64,000 bases of DNA from a virus (Duplodnaviria > Caudoviricetes): IMG/VR virus record IMGVR_UViG_3300029955_000001, one strand, 5' to 3'. Both the position numbers and the translations under genes were made by a program. The notes beneath the pieces were generated by a model that was not told the DNA's origin, did not search any database, and worked only from the letters and a program-made list of their open reading frames with translations. Below, in pieces: positions 3,255-51,328 of the stretch (within the stretch, counting starts at the first letter, position 1; the number at the start of each line of letters is the position of its first letter).

Positions 3255-3905
3255 ATGAAAGCATTAGCTGATAAACTGAATAGAATAGAAAGTATTGGTA
3301 TTTTACTTCAACAAGAAATTGCTGAATTAAAAGAAATTATTATGGGTCCTAAACCTATTGTTGAAACATACGACGTTATAGTGGTGGATGGTGTCCCTGT
3401 ATCGGCTAAGAGCACACCGCCTGCTATTTCATCTGAAGAGAAACAATTAATTGACGATGTTATCGAATTCAAAAATACAGAGAACGATATACGAGAAGGT
3501 CTATTTAAACAGATAAGGGGTAAAGACAGTATTATTAATATGTTTTTATCGCCTACTGTTATTAATGGCGGTAGAGGTTTTATTCGACCAATCCCAGCTT
3601 TCATGCAATATGAAGAAGATATATCTTTTTTAAATCCTGATCGATTAATGGTGTTTCCAGCAGGCTTCTACATGAATCGCGTTACGAGAGAAATACAATT
3701 GTTAATCTTTACGCGTTCGTGCATTGTTTGTATTGATAACTTACCTGGAATAGAAGGTAATGTTCGTTTTATGATAGCAGATAGATCCGGTTATAAAACA
3801 AATGAATTATACAAAGAAGCATCAAGTGAAGATTTGATTTTACTTATCTCTCAATTAGAAGAGAGTTTTAAAGAATTAATGTCACAGTGCGATTTCACGT
3901 CATAA
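3255..3905 (+). CDS. Hypothetical protein
   Basis: AAGGA RBS; 216-aa ORF followed by a hairpin. Confidence 0.75.
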   Translation: MKALADKLNRIESIGILLQQEIAELKEIIMGPKPIVETYDVIVVDGVPVSAKSTPPAISSEEKQLIDDVIEFKNTENDIREGLFKQIRGKDSIINMFLSPTVINGGRGFIRPIPAFMQYEEDISFLNPDRLMVFPAGFYMNRVTREIQLLIFTRSCIVCIDNLPGIEGNVRFMIADRSGYKTNELYKEASSEDLILLISQLEESFKELMSQCDFTS

Positions 3906-13864: not shown

Positions 13865-13965
13865 AATATTAATTTTTTTATATATCACACATGAATAGTG
13901 TGCGATGCAAATCACTTATTTTAGTGGTTTATTATTTTCTCAACAACTTACTAAGGATGTTAAAA

Positions 13966-14256
13966 ATGACTACACCTTTTCCGATTAAACGAAATGTTCT
14001 GCGTATGATTCATTGGTTGATTATAGCAGCATTGTTTTATTTTGTTGCTTATTGCTTATCAATCGACGAAGAGCTTCGTCAGCTTTCTACAATCTCTTGG
14101 AAACTCGGCAATGTAACTGTAGGCGGTTATGTGGGCTATTGGCTAGATAGGCATTTGTTCCAAACAAGGATAGATGACACTAGCCCGCCACTGTTACAGA
14201 TCAGGAGAGCCGTGATTGTGGCAGCTAGTATCTTTGCTGTATCGACAGGATTGTAA
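13966..14256 (+). CDS. Putative holin (2-3 transmembrane segments)
   Basis: Start reassigned to ATG 13966 after AAGGA; hydrophobic helices; GYVGYWLDR.LF motif; directly upstream of a transglycosylase. Confidence 0.75.
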   Translation: MTTPFPIKRNVLRMIHWLIIAALFYFVAYCLSIDEELRQLSTISWKLGNVTVGGYVGYWLDRHLFQTRIDDTSPPLLQIRRAVIVAASIFAVSTGL

Positions 14257-31112: not shown

Positions 31113-32774
31113 CTATCGCCGCAACATTTCCTGAATACCGTCGAGCAGCTTAATATATTTTGGATTACGCTCCACTACGTTCTTAGAGTCATATTGAAGA
31201 TAAAAGTTTATACGACTGCGTCCCGATGGTTCACTTTTAGGCATATTTGAATATCCACCAATTTCAGCCACACTAACATGCATTCGTTTTGACGGATCGT
31301 TTAAGACAGCTCGATCTTTACGATTACTTGTGCGTGTAGAATCTCGCTGAGGTACGAGTATAGATGTTATCTTCAAAGCTTTATTATCGCCCGGATTAGA
31401 GATATTTGTTACTTCTCCATGATTCTTTGTCATTGAATAAATCAAACCTAAACGTAATGTTTGATTCATTGTGGCGATGACTTCTTTTGCTGAGATTTCT
31501 TTCTTAGCCGCTGCTTTCAATTTAAAATGCAATTTAAAGATAGCGCTCGTGATCTCATACAGCACGTGATATAGAACATTCAACTCTTTGTCGTACATTG
31601 AATTCACTTTATCAGTTGCGTTCAACAGCCAGTCGTTAAAGTGTTCTATGATGACAGCAAATAATTGATAGATATCCTCAACTGGAACACCAATCTCTTC
31701 CATCTTCTTTACCACAATTCCATCGATATATTCATCCAGTGAATCAATATGGTCTTTAATATCATCGTTCAACTTACCATGATGAATATTAGCAGACCAA
31801 AGAATGACTCCCATTGCAATATTCCACATCCTCTTTTCACCAGAACCACCAATGAATTGCGGCTGAATACTTGTAGGGAAATGATCAATGATGTAAAACA
31901 AACCACCTAACATATTTCTTACCATTGGAGTCATCTCTTCTTTACGAATAGCCACATTAACTGTGGATGGTTCGTAATAAGCTCTCCCAAATCCTTTTGG
32001 TTTCACCTGCACACTGCTGCAAATAGTCCATTCGTTTTCTGGGTAAACGTTCTTATTTACTTCAGGTCCGCCAATGACTAATTTACATTTTCCAAACTTT
32101 AAAAAAGTATCATGTAAACCATACTTACATAACAAATAATGCATCATCGTTGTATTTGCTTTGATTGTCTGACGCATCCTTTTCATCTTTTGGTTTTTAT
32201 GATAAATTAACGACCAAACAACCTGAACAGTCTCGCGTTTACCATCCACCATGTAGTGCTGACTAACACGTTTAAATGTTAATTTATCACGTAGCAGTCT
32301 AACAAAGATATCCGTCATGCCAACTGAAATTACACGATCAATAAGCAATGGTGAAACATTAAATCTGCTACCGCCTAAAGTAATAGTGCCAGCTTCATTT
32401 ACGAAAGGCAAGTACAAGAAACGATCTGGTAACAATTCTTCTTTAAATTTGAATATATACTTCATCATGTACAAATCACTTCTTGCTACATCAAACGTTC
32501 GCTTACTTGTTTTTCTTTTTGTTGCTTCAGCAAATTCTTCTTGCGGCGTACAGCGTTTATAGCCGAGATACACTAAATCAGTAGGGAATCCATTTGCTGC
32601 TGATTTAATAACCTCGTCAATATACTGTTCGCAATATTGCATGTGCTTACATGCTAACCCATTAGCGATGTTTTCATTAAATCGCGGGGTGTCAGAATCC
32701 ACTAGGAGTGTTAACGCGGTATCTATGATGTTCTCCCTTTTGCAGTGTTTACGATGGGCGCACAACACGCCCAT
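31113..32774 (-). CDS. Non-virion RNA polymerase beta-type subunit (phiKZ gp123-like, N-terminal part of beta)
   Basis: LYLPFV...G.I.L.GSRF...P.L.DR motif; C-terminal H.S.AE.GGYS..PKSEPSGR.RIN; synteny with the MCP. Confidence 0.8.
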   Translation of the reverse strand: MGVLCAHRKHCKRENIIDTALTLLVDSDTPRFNENIANGLACKHMQYCEQYIDEVIKSAANGFPTDLVYLGYKRCTPQEEFAEATKRKTSKRTFDVARSDLYMMKYIFKFKEELLPDRFLYLPFVNEAGTITLGGSRFNVSPLLIDRVISVGMTDIFVRLLRDKLTFKRVSQHYMVDGKRETVQVVWSLIYHKNQKMKRMRQTIKANTTMMHYLLCKYGLHDTFLKFGKCKLVIGGPEVNKNVYPENEWTICSSVQVKPKGFGRAYYEPSTVNVAIRKEEMTPMVRNMLGGLFYIIDHFPTSIQPQFIGGSGEKRMWNIAMGVILWSANIHHGKLNDDIKDHIDSLDEYIDGIVVKKMEEIGVPVEDIYQLFAVIIEHFNDWLLNATDKVNSMYDKELNVLYHVLYEITSAIFKLHFKLKAAAKKEISAKEVIATMNQTLRLGLIYSMTKNHGEVTNISNPGDNKALKITSILVPQRDSTRTSNRKDRAVLNDPSKRMHVSVAEIGGYSNMPKSEPSGRSRINFYLQYDSKNVVERNPKYIKLLDGIQEMLRR

Positions 32775-32780
32775 CGTTTA

Positions 32781-33929
32781 TTACTTTGCAGCTTTCTTTA
32801 TAAAAGTAGAAGCAATAGCAGTACATATTGCTCCTGCACCAATAATCATCGCTGGAATCCATTTGATTATTTCGGTTTGCTCTTTTCGAGAATGAGATGT
32901 ATCCTCGAAATGATCTTTTATTCTCTGTCGTTCTAAAGCAGACACTATGTCTACTCGTTCTTTCATTTCAAGCATTACTTGAGCGTGCCGAGATGCTTCC
33001 ATCTCGAGGCGTTTTAATTCTTTGTTCTTCTCGATTATTTCTAACTCATGCGATTGTTTTGCTATTTGTGTTTCATGTTTCATCGCTAGCAGTGTTTGTT
33101 CGAGAGCAGCCATTTCCATTTTCTTAGCCAGAGACACATCACCAAGATTCAATGCTTCTTCATGCGTCTTAAATAACCCAACCTTTTCTTGTGCTTCCTC
33201 AAACGTAAAGTAGTTTACTTTAACATCAGTAACATCGAACTTTCCAGTAACGGGATTATTCGATACGACATAAATGCCGTCTTTTCTACTACCATCAGTT
33301 TTTGTTGTCACGCGATAAACTTTATTACCAATATTCAAATATCGGTCACCATATCTTTTAGCGCTATCTATTAACTCCACTGAATATCCAAAACATTTAT
33401 TGTCTTGATGTACTAAGTTAGACTGAATAGAATTTGCTTCTTTAGCGGAATTACTAAATGGATGTTGAGGAGCGTATTCAATTGGTAAAATTGAAATGAC
33501 ACAATCTAGTTCGTGGTGATATATTGTACCACCGTTCGCTCTTAACTGATCATAACTAACTGGGTAATCTAATACTAACTTTGCACCGGAGTAATAGGTT
33601 TTCTTTTCGTGTTCATTAAAAGCATTGCGTAATGCTATTAATTCACTACTACTTGAATCATCTGTCACACCAGACAATATATGTTGCGTGTCTAATTTTA
33701 TCGCAGCATTCATAATCATCGTTGTTCTGATAATTAATTTCTTGTTAAACATGCTGCGTTCAGGCTTTAGTACAAATTTATATCCAGATCTCCGTACGAT
33801 AGTGACTGGCACAGGTAAATCGTTAATATACTTTGTGTCAAAATCAAACTGACTACTACCTATCTCACGAATATCTGTTGGTGCTGGATACACCTCACCA
33901 AAGTACGATGGAATTTCATTTTCTTTCAT
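32781..33929 (-). CDS. Conserved hypothetical protein with C-terminal coiled coil and TM (phiKZ gp122-like)
   Basis: Lies between the MCP and the RNAP subunit; C-terminal hydrophobic helix. Confidence 0.7.
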   Translation of the reverse strand: MKENEIPSYFGEVYPAPTDIREIGSSQFDFDTKYINDLPVPVTIVRRSGYKFVLKPERSMFNKKLIIRTTMIMNAAIKLDTQHILSGVTDDSSSSELIALRNAFNEHEKKTYYSGAKLVLDYPVSYDQLRANGGTIYHHELDCVISILPIEYAPQHPFSNSAKEANSIQSNLVHQDNKCFGYSVELIDSAKRYGDRYLNIGNKVYRVTTKTDGSRKDGIYVVSNNPVTGKFDVTDVKVNYFTFEEAQEKVGLFKTHEEALNLGDVSLAKKMEMAALEQTLLAMKHETQIAKQSHELEIIEKNKELKRLEMEASRHAQVMLEMKERVDIVSALERQRIKDHFEDTSHSRKEQTEIIKWIPAMIIGAGAICTAIASTFIKKAAK

Positions 33930-34063: not shown

Positions 34064-34260
34064 ATTATTACCACTTCATAACAGTGACGGTATCTCTCAA
34101 TATCAGAGTTCTTGTTGCTGATCCTTTACATCAGGATTCACTTCACAAGCTATCCGGACTTACCAGCCCTTGTATTTCTATTCTAGCAATTCACGCAAGA
34201 AGTGCCGGTACTGTAAATATTCATACTAGCTACATCATCAGCGTTCTTTGTAAAACCACA
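34064..34260 (-). ncRNA. TnpB omega-RNA (right-end RNA) with putative guide TGTTATGAAGTGGTAAT
   Basis: GCTTGTGAAGTGAA...CAGCAACAAGAAC typical of IS605/IS1341 3' ends; scaffold ends ...CGTCAC at 34084. Confidence 0.65.
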
Positions 34261-34587
34261 ATTCATACATTTAGCACAACAGCGGAACAGTCATTTAGCC
34301 AAATAAATTCTGGGTTTTGTTTTAGTAATACTAATTCATTAATTAAACCAAATACGGTAGGTTTATGCCCTAACTCATAAAGCTCTTTCCATCGTGCTAA
34401 GCCCCAGTTATAAATAAATCTGCTACATCCTGCAAATTGTTTAAATTGAGTTTCTTGTTGTTTAGTAGGAAATAAACGATACTTAAAAGCCTTATGAAAT
34501 GTTATTTATCCATTTAAGGAGATTTTGTTATTTGACATTCTTAATCTCCTTATTTAGAAGAACATATAGTAATTCTCATAACAGTGA
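34076..34587 (-). mobile_element. Degenerate IS200/IS605-family TnpB element bounded by a 12-bp direct repeat
   Basis: TCATAACAGTGA at 34076-34087 and 34576-34587 flanks a tnpB remnant plus its right-end RNA. Confidence 0.75.
34183..34538 (-). pseudogene. tnpB: tnpB remnant (N-terminal HTH joined to C-terminal zinc ribbon; large internal deletion; early in-frame TAA)
   Basis: MSNNKISLNG*ITFHKAFKYRLFPTKQQETQFKQFAGCSRFIYNWGL...WLNDCSAVVL, then in another frame KCMNCGFTKNADDVASMNI. Confidence 0.88.
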
Positions 34588-34601
34588 TATATTACTCAAA
34601 T
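34584..34601 (-). promoter_or_regulatory. Putative early-type promoter upstream of the tnpB remnant and the gp122/RNAP operon
   Basis: Minus-strand ATTTGAGTAATATATCAC. Confidence 0.55.
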
Positions 34602-34616
34602 ATTTTCGAATAGTAA

Positions 34617-34660
34617 CGGCATAAAACCTCTACCAGAACGATTAGGTTCTGATAGAGGAA
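34617..34660 (-). terminator. Hairpin + TATGCCG after the major capsid gene
   Basis: cctctaccagaac/gttctgatagagg stem with one mismatch; CGGCATA at 34617-34623. Confidence 0.7.
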
Positions 34661-34696: not shown

Positions 34697-36937
34697 TTAT
34701 ACCAAATCGCTAGTTACAGTTAAGAAATGAACTGGAACTTTTGCCGATACCACATCACTAATCCCCGTGATATCCAGAGCAGCCATGATCGGCAAGTTAA
34801 CAACGTGCAAGAACGACGGTTGGACCGTAAGTTCTTTGCTGTTAGCGCCGTTACGATGCAATGGCAACACCAGGGTCAGTTCTGGCTTCCAAGCCATGTT
34901 ACCGAAATGCATCGGATTAGGCACGCCGTCCATCGAATCACCAAAGGCACCGAACGTCATGATGATCTTACCAGCCATGGTCATGTTCAGAGTCGACACA
35001 ACCTTAACATTGAAGTCATTGCCCAATGTACGGAAGTCGCCAGTTACCGTCAGGTAACGAGAGATAACCGGATCAGTACCGATGATAACAGTCGGAACTT
35101 GGGAAATGCCGCCAGCCAGTGCATCAGCAGCTGCTTTGTAACCAGAGTCACGATACATGCGATAAGCCATGTCGCGCAGTTTATTAACGAGCAATGCTTG
35201 AATATCAGCAATACGATCAGACGACTTGATCGAATCAACCAACGAAGCAACGTCCAGCGTAGCATGTTCGTAGAATGGTTGCACCAAGAAGCGAGCTACA
35301 CCCAGAATGCCCGAGTTATCAGTCAACGAACCAAGAGTTCCAGGAACCAAGCCATCAGCCGTATTCACAAATTCAGCCAACAGATCTTGTGCTTTCAACA
35401 GTTCAGACACAGCAGCATTACTGGTGCGGATATGCGTTGCAGTAATCAGAGCAGCCAGGTCGCTCGAATCGTTTGCATCACCAATCGTCAATGGACGCGG
35501 TACAGTGATAGGCGAACGCAACGGCACTGCGTAAATCTGATTGTAGAACGTAGTATCCAACAGCTGACCACGCATACGACGGTTCAGGTTAGTACGACGC
35601 GCATCAAGATCGTAACCAACAGCCGAAGCATTTGCAAACAGATTTGCAATTGTCAAACCAGCACCAGTGGTCAAGTCCAAGCTAACGCCATTGCCATCGA
35701 TAACAGAAACAACACCCACGTTACCTGGGAACAGATTCGTATCACCCAATTCAAGATTGACACCGCCCGATACTTGCACAGACAAACGAACCGAATAACC
35801 ACCAGCGAGGATAGGTGCAAACGCAGCAGGAAGAACACCGTTTACGTTAGTAGTAGTGCCTGTTACTTGCAGAATATTCGTATCGAATATGCAAGTCATC
35901 ACACGATAGTTCTGTTGCACTGAGTATTGGAATGTGGCCAATGGCAACTTGCCAGTATTGAACTGGATCAAATCAGTTTCAGCATCATTTACAATCTTCA
36001 GATACACCGATTCCAAACGAATGGCAGTATCGATCGAGTCAGTCGAATCATTCAGACCGGTTTCAAGCATTGCGTCAGTTTGCGAAATAGCCAACAGTCC
36101 GAACTTATTGCCCATTTTCAGAGGAGCAGTAGTAATCGACTCACCATCCAACAGAATGGTCTTCGGTGCATACAGAGCTGGGTCAATGAAGTTCGATGCC
36201 GCTTGGGTACGATACACTGGGACAATACGTGTTTGATCATTCTTCAGGATCGTAGGATCGATTACAGCTTGAACGATGTTGCGTTTGTTGAAGTTGTCAA
36301 CAGCACCAGTGATTTGGCGACGAACTTCATTGTACACGGAGATCAGACGGATCGAAACGGTATAGCCAACTTGGTCAGGTGTAACTACAACGGTTGGGAA
36401 GAAAGTTTCGCCGAATTCATCTTGGCGAGCAGCTTGCATGTTATATGCAACAGAATACACAACGGCATTCTTGTTTTCTTTCTCATCATAAGCTTCCATT
36501 GCAGCCGAAATACGACCTTGCAATGAATCGCCAATGCCTTCAGTCCCGAAGAAGGTCATGTTTTCAGCAGCAACCATACTGCGTGCAACAGGAGCATTCA
36601 AGAAACCAGGAATGTCGCCTGCCATAATACCAGCAGCTACGGCAGCTTGTTTTTGCGCAGTGGTCAGAGGAGCACCGTCTGAACGCTTAATCACATGCGT
36701 GTCAACAATCTGTTCCAGTGCCAAATTAAGGCTATTTACACAGCGGTCAAGTTCATTAGCGGTAGTTGCATCAATCGATTCCATCGACATAGCAGCATGT
36801 GCGTATTCTTTGGATGCAAAAGTAGAACCATTTGAATTCAGTTGTTGACGAATGCCAGCAACCAGGTTGTCAAGTGGAGTCGCCGGAGTGTAAGAACCGA
36901 CGCGTTGTTGTTTATTGCGAAACAGTGATGTGCTCAT
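34697..36937 (-). CDS. Major capsid protein (phiKZ gp120-like)
   Basis: QDEFGETFFPTVV and R..G.L.D motifs; propeptide with S/A-M-E cleavage sites; biased codon usage; start taken at ATG 36937. Confidence 0.9.
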   Translation of the reverse strand: MSTSLFRNKQQRVGSYTPATPLDNLVAGIRQQLNSNGSTFASKEYAHAAMSMESIDATTANELDRCVNSLNLALEQIVDTHVIKRSDGAPLTTAQKQAAVAAGIMAGDIPGFLNAPVARSMVAAENMTFFGTEGIGDSLQGRISAAMEAYDEKENKNAVVYSVAYNMQAARQDEFGETFFPTVVVTPDQVGYTVSIRLISVYNEVRRQITGAVDNFNKRNIVQAVIDPTILKNDQTRIVPVYRTQAASNFIDPALYAPKTILLDGESITTAPLKMGNKFGLLAISQTDAMLETGLNDSTDSIDTAIRLESVYLKIVNDAETDLIQFNTGKLPLATFQYSVQQNYRVMTCIFDTNILQVTGTTTNVNGVLPAAFAPILAGGYSVRLSVQVSGGVNLELGDTNLFPGNVGVVSVIDGNGVSLDLTTGAGLTIANLFANASAVGYDLDARRTNLNRRMRGQLLDTTFYNQIYAVPLRSPITVPRPLTIGDANDSSDLAALITATHIRTSNAAVSELLKAQDLLAEFVNTADGLVPGTLGSLTDNSGILGVARFLVQPFYEHATLDVASLVDSIKSSDRIADIQALLVNKLRDMAYRMYRDSGYKAAADALAGGISQVPTVIIGTDPVISRYLTVTGDFRTLGNDFNVKVVSTLNMTMAGKIIMTFGAFGDSMDGVPNPMHFGNMAWKPELTLVLPLHRNGANSKELTVQPSFLHVVNLPIMAALDITGISDVVSAKVPVHFLTVTSDLV

Positions 36938-37001
36938 TTTTTTAAAATCCTTGCAGTTGGAAAGAAAAGATGCTTTTGGGGCATTGTACCTCAAAGTATT
37001 A

Positions 37002-50635: not shown

Positions 50636-51091
50636 TTAAATTGAAATAGGCAATTTACCGCTCAATATCCATGACACGATATCAACAGATAAGCAGTCTA
50701 TAATCTGTCGTGTAGCGCTCACAAAACGCTCGTTGTTAGCCGCTGATTTTGCTCGTAGATATTTCAGGTAATCTGGCGTGCTATAATGTCTGGTATGTGT
50801 TACTTGTTTACCACGATGTATTAACTCTATTAAAGATAATACATTAACTATCCCGTTAATAGTACGCGATATACAAAACCCCGTCGTAATACTACCTGGA
50901 TCTATTTTTACTTCTATTTCTTGTAATTGACAATCCTTTTGATCTAGATCAATTAATTGGATTACAAAAGGTTTTACCTTTATCACACGTGCTCTACCTC
51001 TTTCGAGTAATAAACGTGCTCTTTTACCAGTACACGGCATGAGTGGTAGTTTATTCTTATCGATTACAAATACAAATGGTTTACCTGACAT
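50636..51091 (-). pseudogene. iscB: Truncated IscB (PLMP/RRXRR domain + RuvC-I; no HNH or RuvC-II/III)
   Basis: FVIDKNKLPLMPC..KRARLLL..GRA...PFVIQL, KIDPGS.TTG, EL.HRG; about 151 aa from ATG 51091. Confidence 0.88.
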
Positions 51092-51099
51092 AATAATCT

Positions 51100-51328
51100 T
51101 TCTGTGATTTACATCACTGGTTACATTCCCCTCGACAATGTTAAAATAGCTTTTTACGTTATACACATTATCCCTTACTCTTAGGATTGTTTAATGTATA
51201 ACGACAGAGCTACAGACTGAGGAAGCATCTGTAGGTATCATGACTAAAATAACGTAGTACAATTAAGTACTGAGTCTGGTCAACTTAATACCTTACGGTA
51301 TCATCCTTTTAGGGATGGAGTAATTGAC
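51100..51328 (-). ncRNA. IscB omega-RNA (HEARO-type) scaffold
   Basis: GTCAATTAC...CCTAAAAGG...GTTGACCAGACTCAG...ACTACGTT...TAAACA...AACATTGTCGAGGG directly upstream of iscB. Confidence 0.85.
51268..51322. repeat. 55-bp exact repeat, copy 1 (omega-RNA 5' module)
   Basis: Identical to 57074-57128. Confidence 0.9.

Follow-up and report, generated by a model that had tools for sequence, protein, structure and literature searches.

The DNA analyzed here is a 64,000-nucleotide stretch (the window) from a phiKZ-like jumbo phage of peat, as judged from its capsid, gp122-like, and polymerase-like genes, which were assigned through PHROG. Our subject is a 500-bp insert that carries the remains of an IS200/IS605-type tnpB gene, together with the 12-base direct repeat, TCACTGTTATGA, found at its two ends. 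The insert lies in the 768-bp gap between the major capsid gene and the gp122-like gene. Read along the minus strand, this gap contains an intrinsic terminator, an AT-rich stretch ending in TATATCAC, the insert, and a leader (Table 1). Four other metagenome contigs, from different samples, share the intergenic sequence (821 bp) at 100% identity, and the insert is therefore fixed in all of the copies observed. The phage is present in samples ERZ27249244, JGI 3300028909, JGI 3300030004, and SRR8553982.

Table 1. Positions of the insert, its parts, and the neighboring genes in the window
Feature	Position	Strand	Remarks
Major capsid protein gene (phiKZ type)	34697–36994	−	765 aa; PHROG 3231 major head protein, E 4e-193; upstream neighbor
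Intrinsic terminator, 3′ of capsid gene	34627–34658	−	13-bp stem, then T run
Early-promoter-like element	34584–34612	−	ends in TATATCAC (34584–34591); final four bases, TCAC, are the predicted target-adjacent motif (TAM)
Left repeat copy	34576–34587	−	TAM TCAC plus the initial 8 bases of the element's left end
Insert	34084–34583	−	500 bp
Element left end	34539–34583	−	45 nt ahead of ATG; carries 5′ arm of 10-bp hairpin
Left-end hairpin	34513–34550	−	10-bp stem; ribosome-binding site in 5′ arm, ATG in loop, 3′ arm to about 34513
tnpB pseudogene	34183–34538	−	ATG 34538–34536; TAA at codon 11 (34508–34506); TAG 34185–34183
omega-RNA scaffold	34084–34290	−	5′ limit uncertain; ends ...CCGTCAC at 34084
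Right repeat copy	34076–34087	−	right-end motif TCAC plus the initial 8 bases of the guide/native target
Putative 20-nt guide	34064–34083	−	directly 3′ of the conserved scaffold end; native promoter-proximal leader sequence
Leader		−	about 150 nt, after the insert
gp122-like gene	32781–33929	−	first gene downstream; PHROG 7727, E 2e-45
RNA polymerase subunit-like gene	31113–32774	−	PHROG 2943 'polymerase', E 1.5e-150; named in the preliminary description as the putative non-virion RNAP beta subunit

TCACTGTTATGA occurs twice in the window, with both copies on the minus strand and a spacing of 500 bp, and the same two sites were the only ones when one mismatch was allowed. The number of copies by itself is not significant; 10 of 100 shuffles yielded at least two 12-mers somewhere in the window at no more than one mismatch. 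It is the positions of the copies that matter. The left copy opens with the final four bases of TATATCAC, and the right copy opens with the final four bases of the omega-RNA scaffold, whose end was set by homology to intact relatives. What lies between the two copies is a TnpB pseudogene together with an omega-RNA 3′ scaffold whose structure is intact. A preliminary description of this DNA had placed a 12-bp direct repeat around a TnpB remnant with its copies exactly 500 bp apart, and this is what we found.

The tnpB gene has been destroyed. When the intact TnpB P0014 (391 aa) was used as the query in tblastn, only residues 9–83 and 360–378 aligned; approximately 276 residues, including RuvC, are lost. 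The 75 codons after the TAA are 72% identical to P0014 residues 9–83, and this N-terminal piece matched Pfam HTH_OrfB_IS605 (E 1.8e-19). The deletion, of residues from about 84 to 359, lies near 34272–34281, and the C-terminal zinc-finger piece that follows is in a different frame; its match to the TNB zinc-finger domain covers the last 19 residues with an E of 0.0018, which is below the cut-off. Within the remnant there is no sense-strand open reading frame (ORF) of 30 aa or more, and no terminator or sigma-70-like promoter was found there. The full domain set of a tnpB product (HTH, RuvC/OrfB_IS605, and TNB) is absent from the window element, which by homology is an IS200/IS605 TnpB pseudogene and not a working member of the family.

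The guide-RNA scaffold fared better. When five relatives were aligned with it at their right ends, all of the invariant columns proved to be kept in the window. Of the 21 pairs in the consensus fold of the last ~125 nt, 13 show compensatory changes, and the helices of this fold are also kept; Rfam contained no family matching the scaffold. By this homology, the 3′ part of the scaffold is intact and ends at the CCGTCAC listed in Table 1. Similarity to the relatives stops exactly past TCAC, at the point where flanking sequence would take over as the guide. The preliminary description of a TnpB remnant that retained its guide-RNA scaffold is thus borne out by both the domain match and the alignment.

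At the left end, a good ribosome-binding site precedes the tnpB ATG and is enclosed, together with the ATG, in a hairpin with a 10-bp stem; the right end has short helices. The DNA fold of the left end had a z of −1.9 in the window, compared with −3.1 for the analogous hairpin of the intact relative L005 (L005:513–568). The large subterminal hairpin had been thought to be reduced; in fact, the left end keeps a stem like that of L005. Such a hairpin may serve in translational control of tnpB, instead of or besides transposase binding. In another relative, L172, a similar centroid hairpin covers the ribosome-binding site.

The sequence to the left of the insert resembles an early promoter. The window contains 8 copies of TATATCAC where 3.3 are expected, a count attained by 1 of 100 shuffles, and four of the sites (34584, 31062, 53494, and 60335) fall between genes and point toward the gene that follows. 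At the same locus in a relative, L088, TATATCAC is kept, and the more distant L089 has TATATTAC before the gp122 gene. TATATTAC is the early-promoter consensus of phiKZ and 201phi2-1, with longer versions in 201phi2-1, OBP, and N1M2 (PMC7058600, Table 2), and the box in the window matches this published consensus. As in the early promoters of phiKZ and 201phi2-1, which are used by the injected virion RNA polymerase, there is a TATAT[T/C]AC box with a T-rich element upstream, and such boxes stand before genes and after terminators; unlike those phages, the window phage favors C at the sixth position of its predicted promoter box. These features make the early-promoter assignment for the left flank a reasonable one, as the preliminary description had proposed for the left repeat copy. 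In phiKZ-type promoters the AT-rich box lies approximately 10 bp upstream of the transcription start (PMC11512511; also PMC8244752). By analogy, transcription in the window probably starts within or just past the 8 duplicated bases that follow the box, and these bases correspond to about the spacer between box and start. At 13881–13893 (plus strand), a fifth TATATCAC (starting at 13881) lies two bases ahead of the ATG of ORF 13891–14256, which may indicate a leaderless early transcript or a misplaced start codon.

The locus L088 also supplied the empty site. Its gp122 is 60% identical to that of the window, and its capsid gene is followed by the hairpin with the same TTTTATGCCG tail, by TATATCAC, and then directly by TACAGTGAAGTAGCAGTAAT, with no insert. 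When the start of this last sequence was compared with the right flank in the window (TGTTATGAAGTGGTAATAAT), 15 of the first 24 bases were shared without a gap. Because nothing lies between box and target in L088, the ancestral site is best read as a single copy of box plus target, with the right repeat copy running into ancestral sequence; both copies in the window continue outward into it. The insertion is a 12-base duplication or, equivalently, an insertion 3′ of TCAC of an element whose 8 initial bases equal the right flank. The alignment with insert-free relatives that the preliminary description had called for therefore gave the single-copy layout, and its proposal that recombination between the repeats would excise the cassette cleanly is supported as well, with a product that is exactly the layout of L088. 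The distance of approximately 35–40 nt from the TTTTATGCCG tail to TATATCAC is kept between the window (34600–34660) and L088 (560–700). This suggests that terminator and promoter form a conserved module separating the capsid gene from the early operon.

Four of the 12 repeated bases belong to the normal anatomy of the lineage: they are the TAM in the left copy and the corresponding right-end motif in the right copy. TCAC, the predicted TAM, is present on both sides of the insert, and pairing of a left-flank TAM with a matching right-end motif is a known trait of the family (10.1101/2023.03.14.532601). The suggestion that TCAC is a TAM is plausible, since it is the assayed TAM of AmaTnpB (PMC10278001) and T[C/T]AC is found at the same place in three mapped relatives. 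The remaining 8 bases (TGTTATGA) copy the first 8 bases of the native target and go beyond what TAM and right-end motif explain. Canonical IS200/IS605 insertion leaves no target duplication (Meers et al., bioRxiv 10.1101/2023.03.14.532601), a point on which the preliminary description agreed with the literature; here, 8 bases past the TAM are duplicated.

Related elements were examined to place this duplication in context. Protein searches gave a small set of close TnpB relatives, 56–80% identical to P0014, and the lineage was found only on jumbo-phage-like contigs. Eight elements, including the window copy, were mapped and compared. In 5 of the 8, the element begins directly 3′ of an early-promoter box (TATAT[C/T]AC, or the same with one base changed), and in all 8 the right end repeats the final 4–6 bases of the left flank. 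The left flank ends in TATATCAC in L005 (right end ...ATCAC), in TATATTAC in L172 and in L008, a complete 322-kb virus record (both ...ATTAC), in CATATCAC in L173 (...ATCAC), and in CATATAAC in L226 (...ATAAC). The last of these (3390–3560, minus strand) is a scaffold of ~165 nt without an ORF, situated behind a terminator. In the order L005, L172, L008, L173, and L226, the TAM/right-end pairs are TCAC, TTAC, TTAC, TCAC, and TAAC. Two other left flanks, each also repeated at the right end, are ...CTATGTG (motif TGTG) in L175, which adjoins a tubulin-like gene, and ...TTTTAT in L006, which lies between phiKZ-type inner-body and head genes. The right-end tetranucleotide tracks the promoter variant of the resident phage, being TCAC with TATATCAC and TTAC with TATATTAC; for example, the TnpBs of L005 and L172 are 80% identical, and their motif pairs are TCAC/TCAC versus TTAC/TTAC. 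No TnpA (Y1) gene was present next to tnpB in the gene tables of the related loci, and the 500-bp window element is too short to hold one; TnpA might still be supplied in trans.

We then asked how far the match between the start of the left end and the start of the guide extends past the motif. The numbers of shared bases in the eight elements were 8, 5, 2, 2, 1, 1, 0, and 0. Among 56 mismatched pairs, the mean shared prefix was 0.29 and the maximum was 2, and a permutation test on alignment scores gave p = 0.014. L175 has ATGTGGAGCT at both the left and the right junction, with 5 bases past the motif. L173 has ATCACGC-ACTG at the left versus ATCACGCCACTG at the right, and L226 has ATAACCCTCGTG versus ATAACCTCGGTG; these two repeats, broken by single-base indels, look like an old duplication that is decaying neutrally. 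A flank repeat of at least 10 bases was found in 3.6% of 138 more distant TnpB loci, compared with 2.5% of mismatched controls, showing that the duplication is not a general TnpB trait. A search for empty sites of L173 and L226, in which their two phage records were compared with each other, matched only the 90-nt scaffold.

These comparisons bear on whether the 8 bases could be a coincidence, that is, a canonical TnpA insertion 3′ of TCAC by an element whose left end happened to equal the first 8 bases of the target, helped by a consensus downstream of the promoter. The length of the left end to the ATG is ordinary (45 nt, compared with 42 in L008 and 37 in L005), left-end starts such as TAAGG, TAAAC, and TAACA resemble the native sequences after the box in L088 (TACAG) and L089 (TAACA), and long flank repeats in the distant loci were no commoner than in controls. 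However, the shared octamer deviates from the common TA start, the same sort of repeat is seen in L175, L173, and L226, and a TnpA gene is found in none of the loci. The chance of an exact 8/8 match at two fixed positions is ~1.5e-5 in random sequence; our own rough estimate, allowing for a shared promoter-downstream consensus (11 native sites), is ~5e-4 per element. A coincidental 8-base match is unlikely, and we regard this explanation of the insert as improbable.

The interpretation that we favor, with a probability of roughly 0.6, is that 34084–34583 is a decayed 500-bp copy of a TnpB-only IS200/IS605-type (OMEGA) element, that the duplication is a scar of insertion or recombination, and that the guide seed matches the promoter only as a by-product, without regulatory function. 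In this model the element would land 3′ of the −10-like box of an early promoter, with T[C/T/A]AC as the TAM, and its landing would put tnpB and the guide RNA directly under a promoter for the virion RNA polymerase. The 8-base copy would be made at arrival or soon after by recombination or break repair, and not by the canonical peel-and-paste of TnpA. Two routes can be envisaged. In the first, a right-end/left-end junction, present in a circle or a tandem array, would recombine by one crossover with a target that has a short stretch in common with it, and the core would be duplicated in a Campbell-type event. In the second, the element would home by break repair, and the crossover or priming on its left would take place a few bases into the left end. 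Because the TnpB cut is distant from the TAM, the target bases nearest the TAM would stay on the promoter side in this route. The absence of TnpA fits both routes, because neither needs it. Decay has since introduced the stop at codon 11, removed ~276 codons, and changed the frame; the element is now probably transcribed by read-through as a mere part of the ~650-nt leader of the gp122/polymerase operon. The anatomy of the insert, the empty site, the position of related elements at promoter boxes, and the conserved RNA structure were observed directly, whereas the way in which the duplication arose, the place of the transcription start, the read-through, and the loss of function are inferences.

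Several observations weigh against this interpretation. Divergence among the left ends of the relatives is too great to show whether the 8 bases were added, replaced, or original, and MAFFT places those of the window either with the left end of L008 or as an insertion relative to L005 and L172. The 5 shared bases of L175 sit in the stem of its left-end hairpin and so look native to the element; in that case a version in which the element chose its target is favored. Only eight elements could be compared, and three of them have little or no extension. In addition, TA is a common beginning both of left ends and of the native sequences downstream of promoters, and this shared constraint raises the chance level.

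Two other origins for the repeat were considered and rejected. A slip of the TnpA boundary that captured flanking DNA (Meers et al.) had no variant in which the left-end start equals the new right flank. A tandem copy, in which the right flank would be a decayed second left end, gave a local alignment score past the repeat of 19, compared with a shuffle mean of 18.3.

Within the favored interpretation, selection for the native stretch from box to start, ahead of an essential early operon, may have aided fixation of the insert. A stronger version of this idea makes selection the origin of the repeat: the insertion split the box from its initiation region, and a variant that regained the native 8 bases was favored because the operon is needed early. 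The duplicated bases do span approximately the box-to-start stretch (inferred from PMC11512511 and PMC8244752), the downstream core genes keep the same promoter in L088 and L089, and the insert is fixed, with the same sequence in five contigs of different samples. This version nevertheless still requires recombination to install 8 exact bases, which makes it a selective gloss on the scar model, and intact relatives work even though the same box is followed there by unrelated left-end starts. We consider promoter repair unlikely.

Extending the scar model to the lineage as a whole, one may tentatively suppose that these elements spread without TnpA through recombination or repair aimed at early promoters, whose −10-like box would provide the TAM, with each insertion duplicating the TAM and the stretch up to the transcription start. 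The footprints of such a process would be the 12-base repeat here, the 10-base repeat of L175, and the decayed repeats of L173 and L226. We offer both the process and this reading of the four repeats as a possibility, on balance doubtful.

The preliminary description had instead emphasized a regulatory use of the repeat, in which a TnpB- or TldR-type effector loaded with the omega-RNA would bind the promoter through an 8-nt seed. In its fullest form, this idea holds that the orphan omega-RNA joins a TnpB- or TldR-like protein made from another part of the phage genome and tunes the gp122/polymerase promoter, or that it once autoregulated tnpB. Its attractions are that a TAM followed by 8 matched bases lies exactly over the predicted initiation region, that the 3′ scaffold is structurally intact, and that TldR proteins act with guides of 9–11 nt and a seed of ~6 nt (10.1101/2023.11.30.569447); the intact element L175 likewise has a 5-base match. 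Like the TldR systems of Wiegand et al. (10.1101/2023.11.30.569447), the window has a TAM and a short guide match over a promoter. Unlike them, it lacks the protein: TldRs are intact proteins with a disabled RuvC and conserved guide-target pairs, whereas tblastn detected no second or intact TnpB-like protein in the window and the remnant itself cannot encode one. The record of the sister remnant L226 (221,460 bp, 82% complete) also contained no TnpB. Nor is the match conserved: among intact relatives it covers 0 bases in L005, 0 in L008, and 2 in L172, and in L173 and L226 indels at bases 2–3 fall within the seed, that of L173 breaking the match at base 3. Moreover, the right junction offers TCAC followed by a perfect full-length match, a far stronger site that would compete for the complex or be cut first unless the TAM is longer. 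All of the promoter boxes have T at position −6, where all of the right ends have C or G; this hints at a 6-base TAM that would prevent self-targeting at the right junction. The first 16 bases of the guide had no other site in the window at two or fewer mismatches. A regulatory role is, in our view, very improbable, and the orphan guide RNA is probably inert.

Of the known systems, the insert is closest to the IS200/IS605 TnpB elements (OMEGA; ISDra2, the ISGst elements, AmaTnpB, and the IS1341-type TnpB-only elements). It shares with them HTH_OrfB_IS605 and a C-terminal zinc-finger piece, a scaffold that overlaps the 3′ end of the gene and stops at the right end so that the flank is the guide, and a 4-base left-flank motif echoed at the right end, TCAC being also the TAM of AmaTnpB (PMC10278001). 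It differs from them in that its nuclease gene is destroyed, TnpA is nearby neither here nor in the relatives, its target motif is formed by the last bases of an early-promoter box of jumbo phages, and the TAM plus 8 target bases are duplicated. The 500-bp remnant and the ~165-nt L226 also resemble palindrome-associated transposable elements (PATEs) and other protein-less IS200/IS605 derivatives (10.1101/2023.03.14.532601) in being short, in retaining the ends, and in having lost the protein gene. PATEs, however, keep both TnpA-binding hairpins and are mobilized in trans, whereas the window element keeps chiefly the omega-RNA scaffold. A decayed element of this kind is thus already known; what is new is the placement of the lineage at early-promoter boxes and the recurrent duplication of TAM and target.

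Since TnpB-only elements have no copy of the transposase by which the family is defined, their mobility is an open question. If the favored interpretation is correct, the duplication would be a testable footprint of a second insertion route for such elements, and a viral promoter consensus would be serving a mobile element in two ways, as the place where it lands and as the signal from which it is expressed. In this phage, a dead element now occupies part of the leader of an essential early operon.

Searches for further copies of the lineage gave few results. In IMG/VR, its specific right-end pattern was found only in L226 and in L207, which is the same element as L173; the 14 matches among 185,579 prokaryote species genomes all lacked a scaffold core ahead of them and are attributable to chance. 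A wider scaffold pattern had 56 matches in IMG/VR, nearly all of them in other lineages with longer 3′ scaffolds. A metagenome scan with the TnpB alignment returned nothing nearer than 44% identity. Neither an exact 23-mer from the right end of the insert nor the gp122 peptides had a match in IMG/VR, and megablast and blastn searches against the phage collection gave no useful close DNA relatives. The nearest cultured phage is Burkholderia phage FLC9, with a capsid identity of just 59%, and Pfam PhiKZ_MCP matched the identical capsid gene of contigs L001–L004. Elsewhere in the window, an ORF on the minus strand (50636–51166, 176 aa) is IscB-like, matching the first half only of the Pfam profile RRXRR (IscB N-terminal region) with an E of 5e-23.

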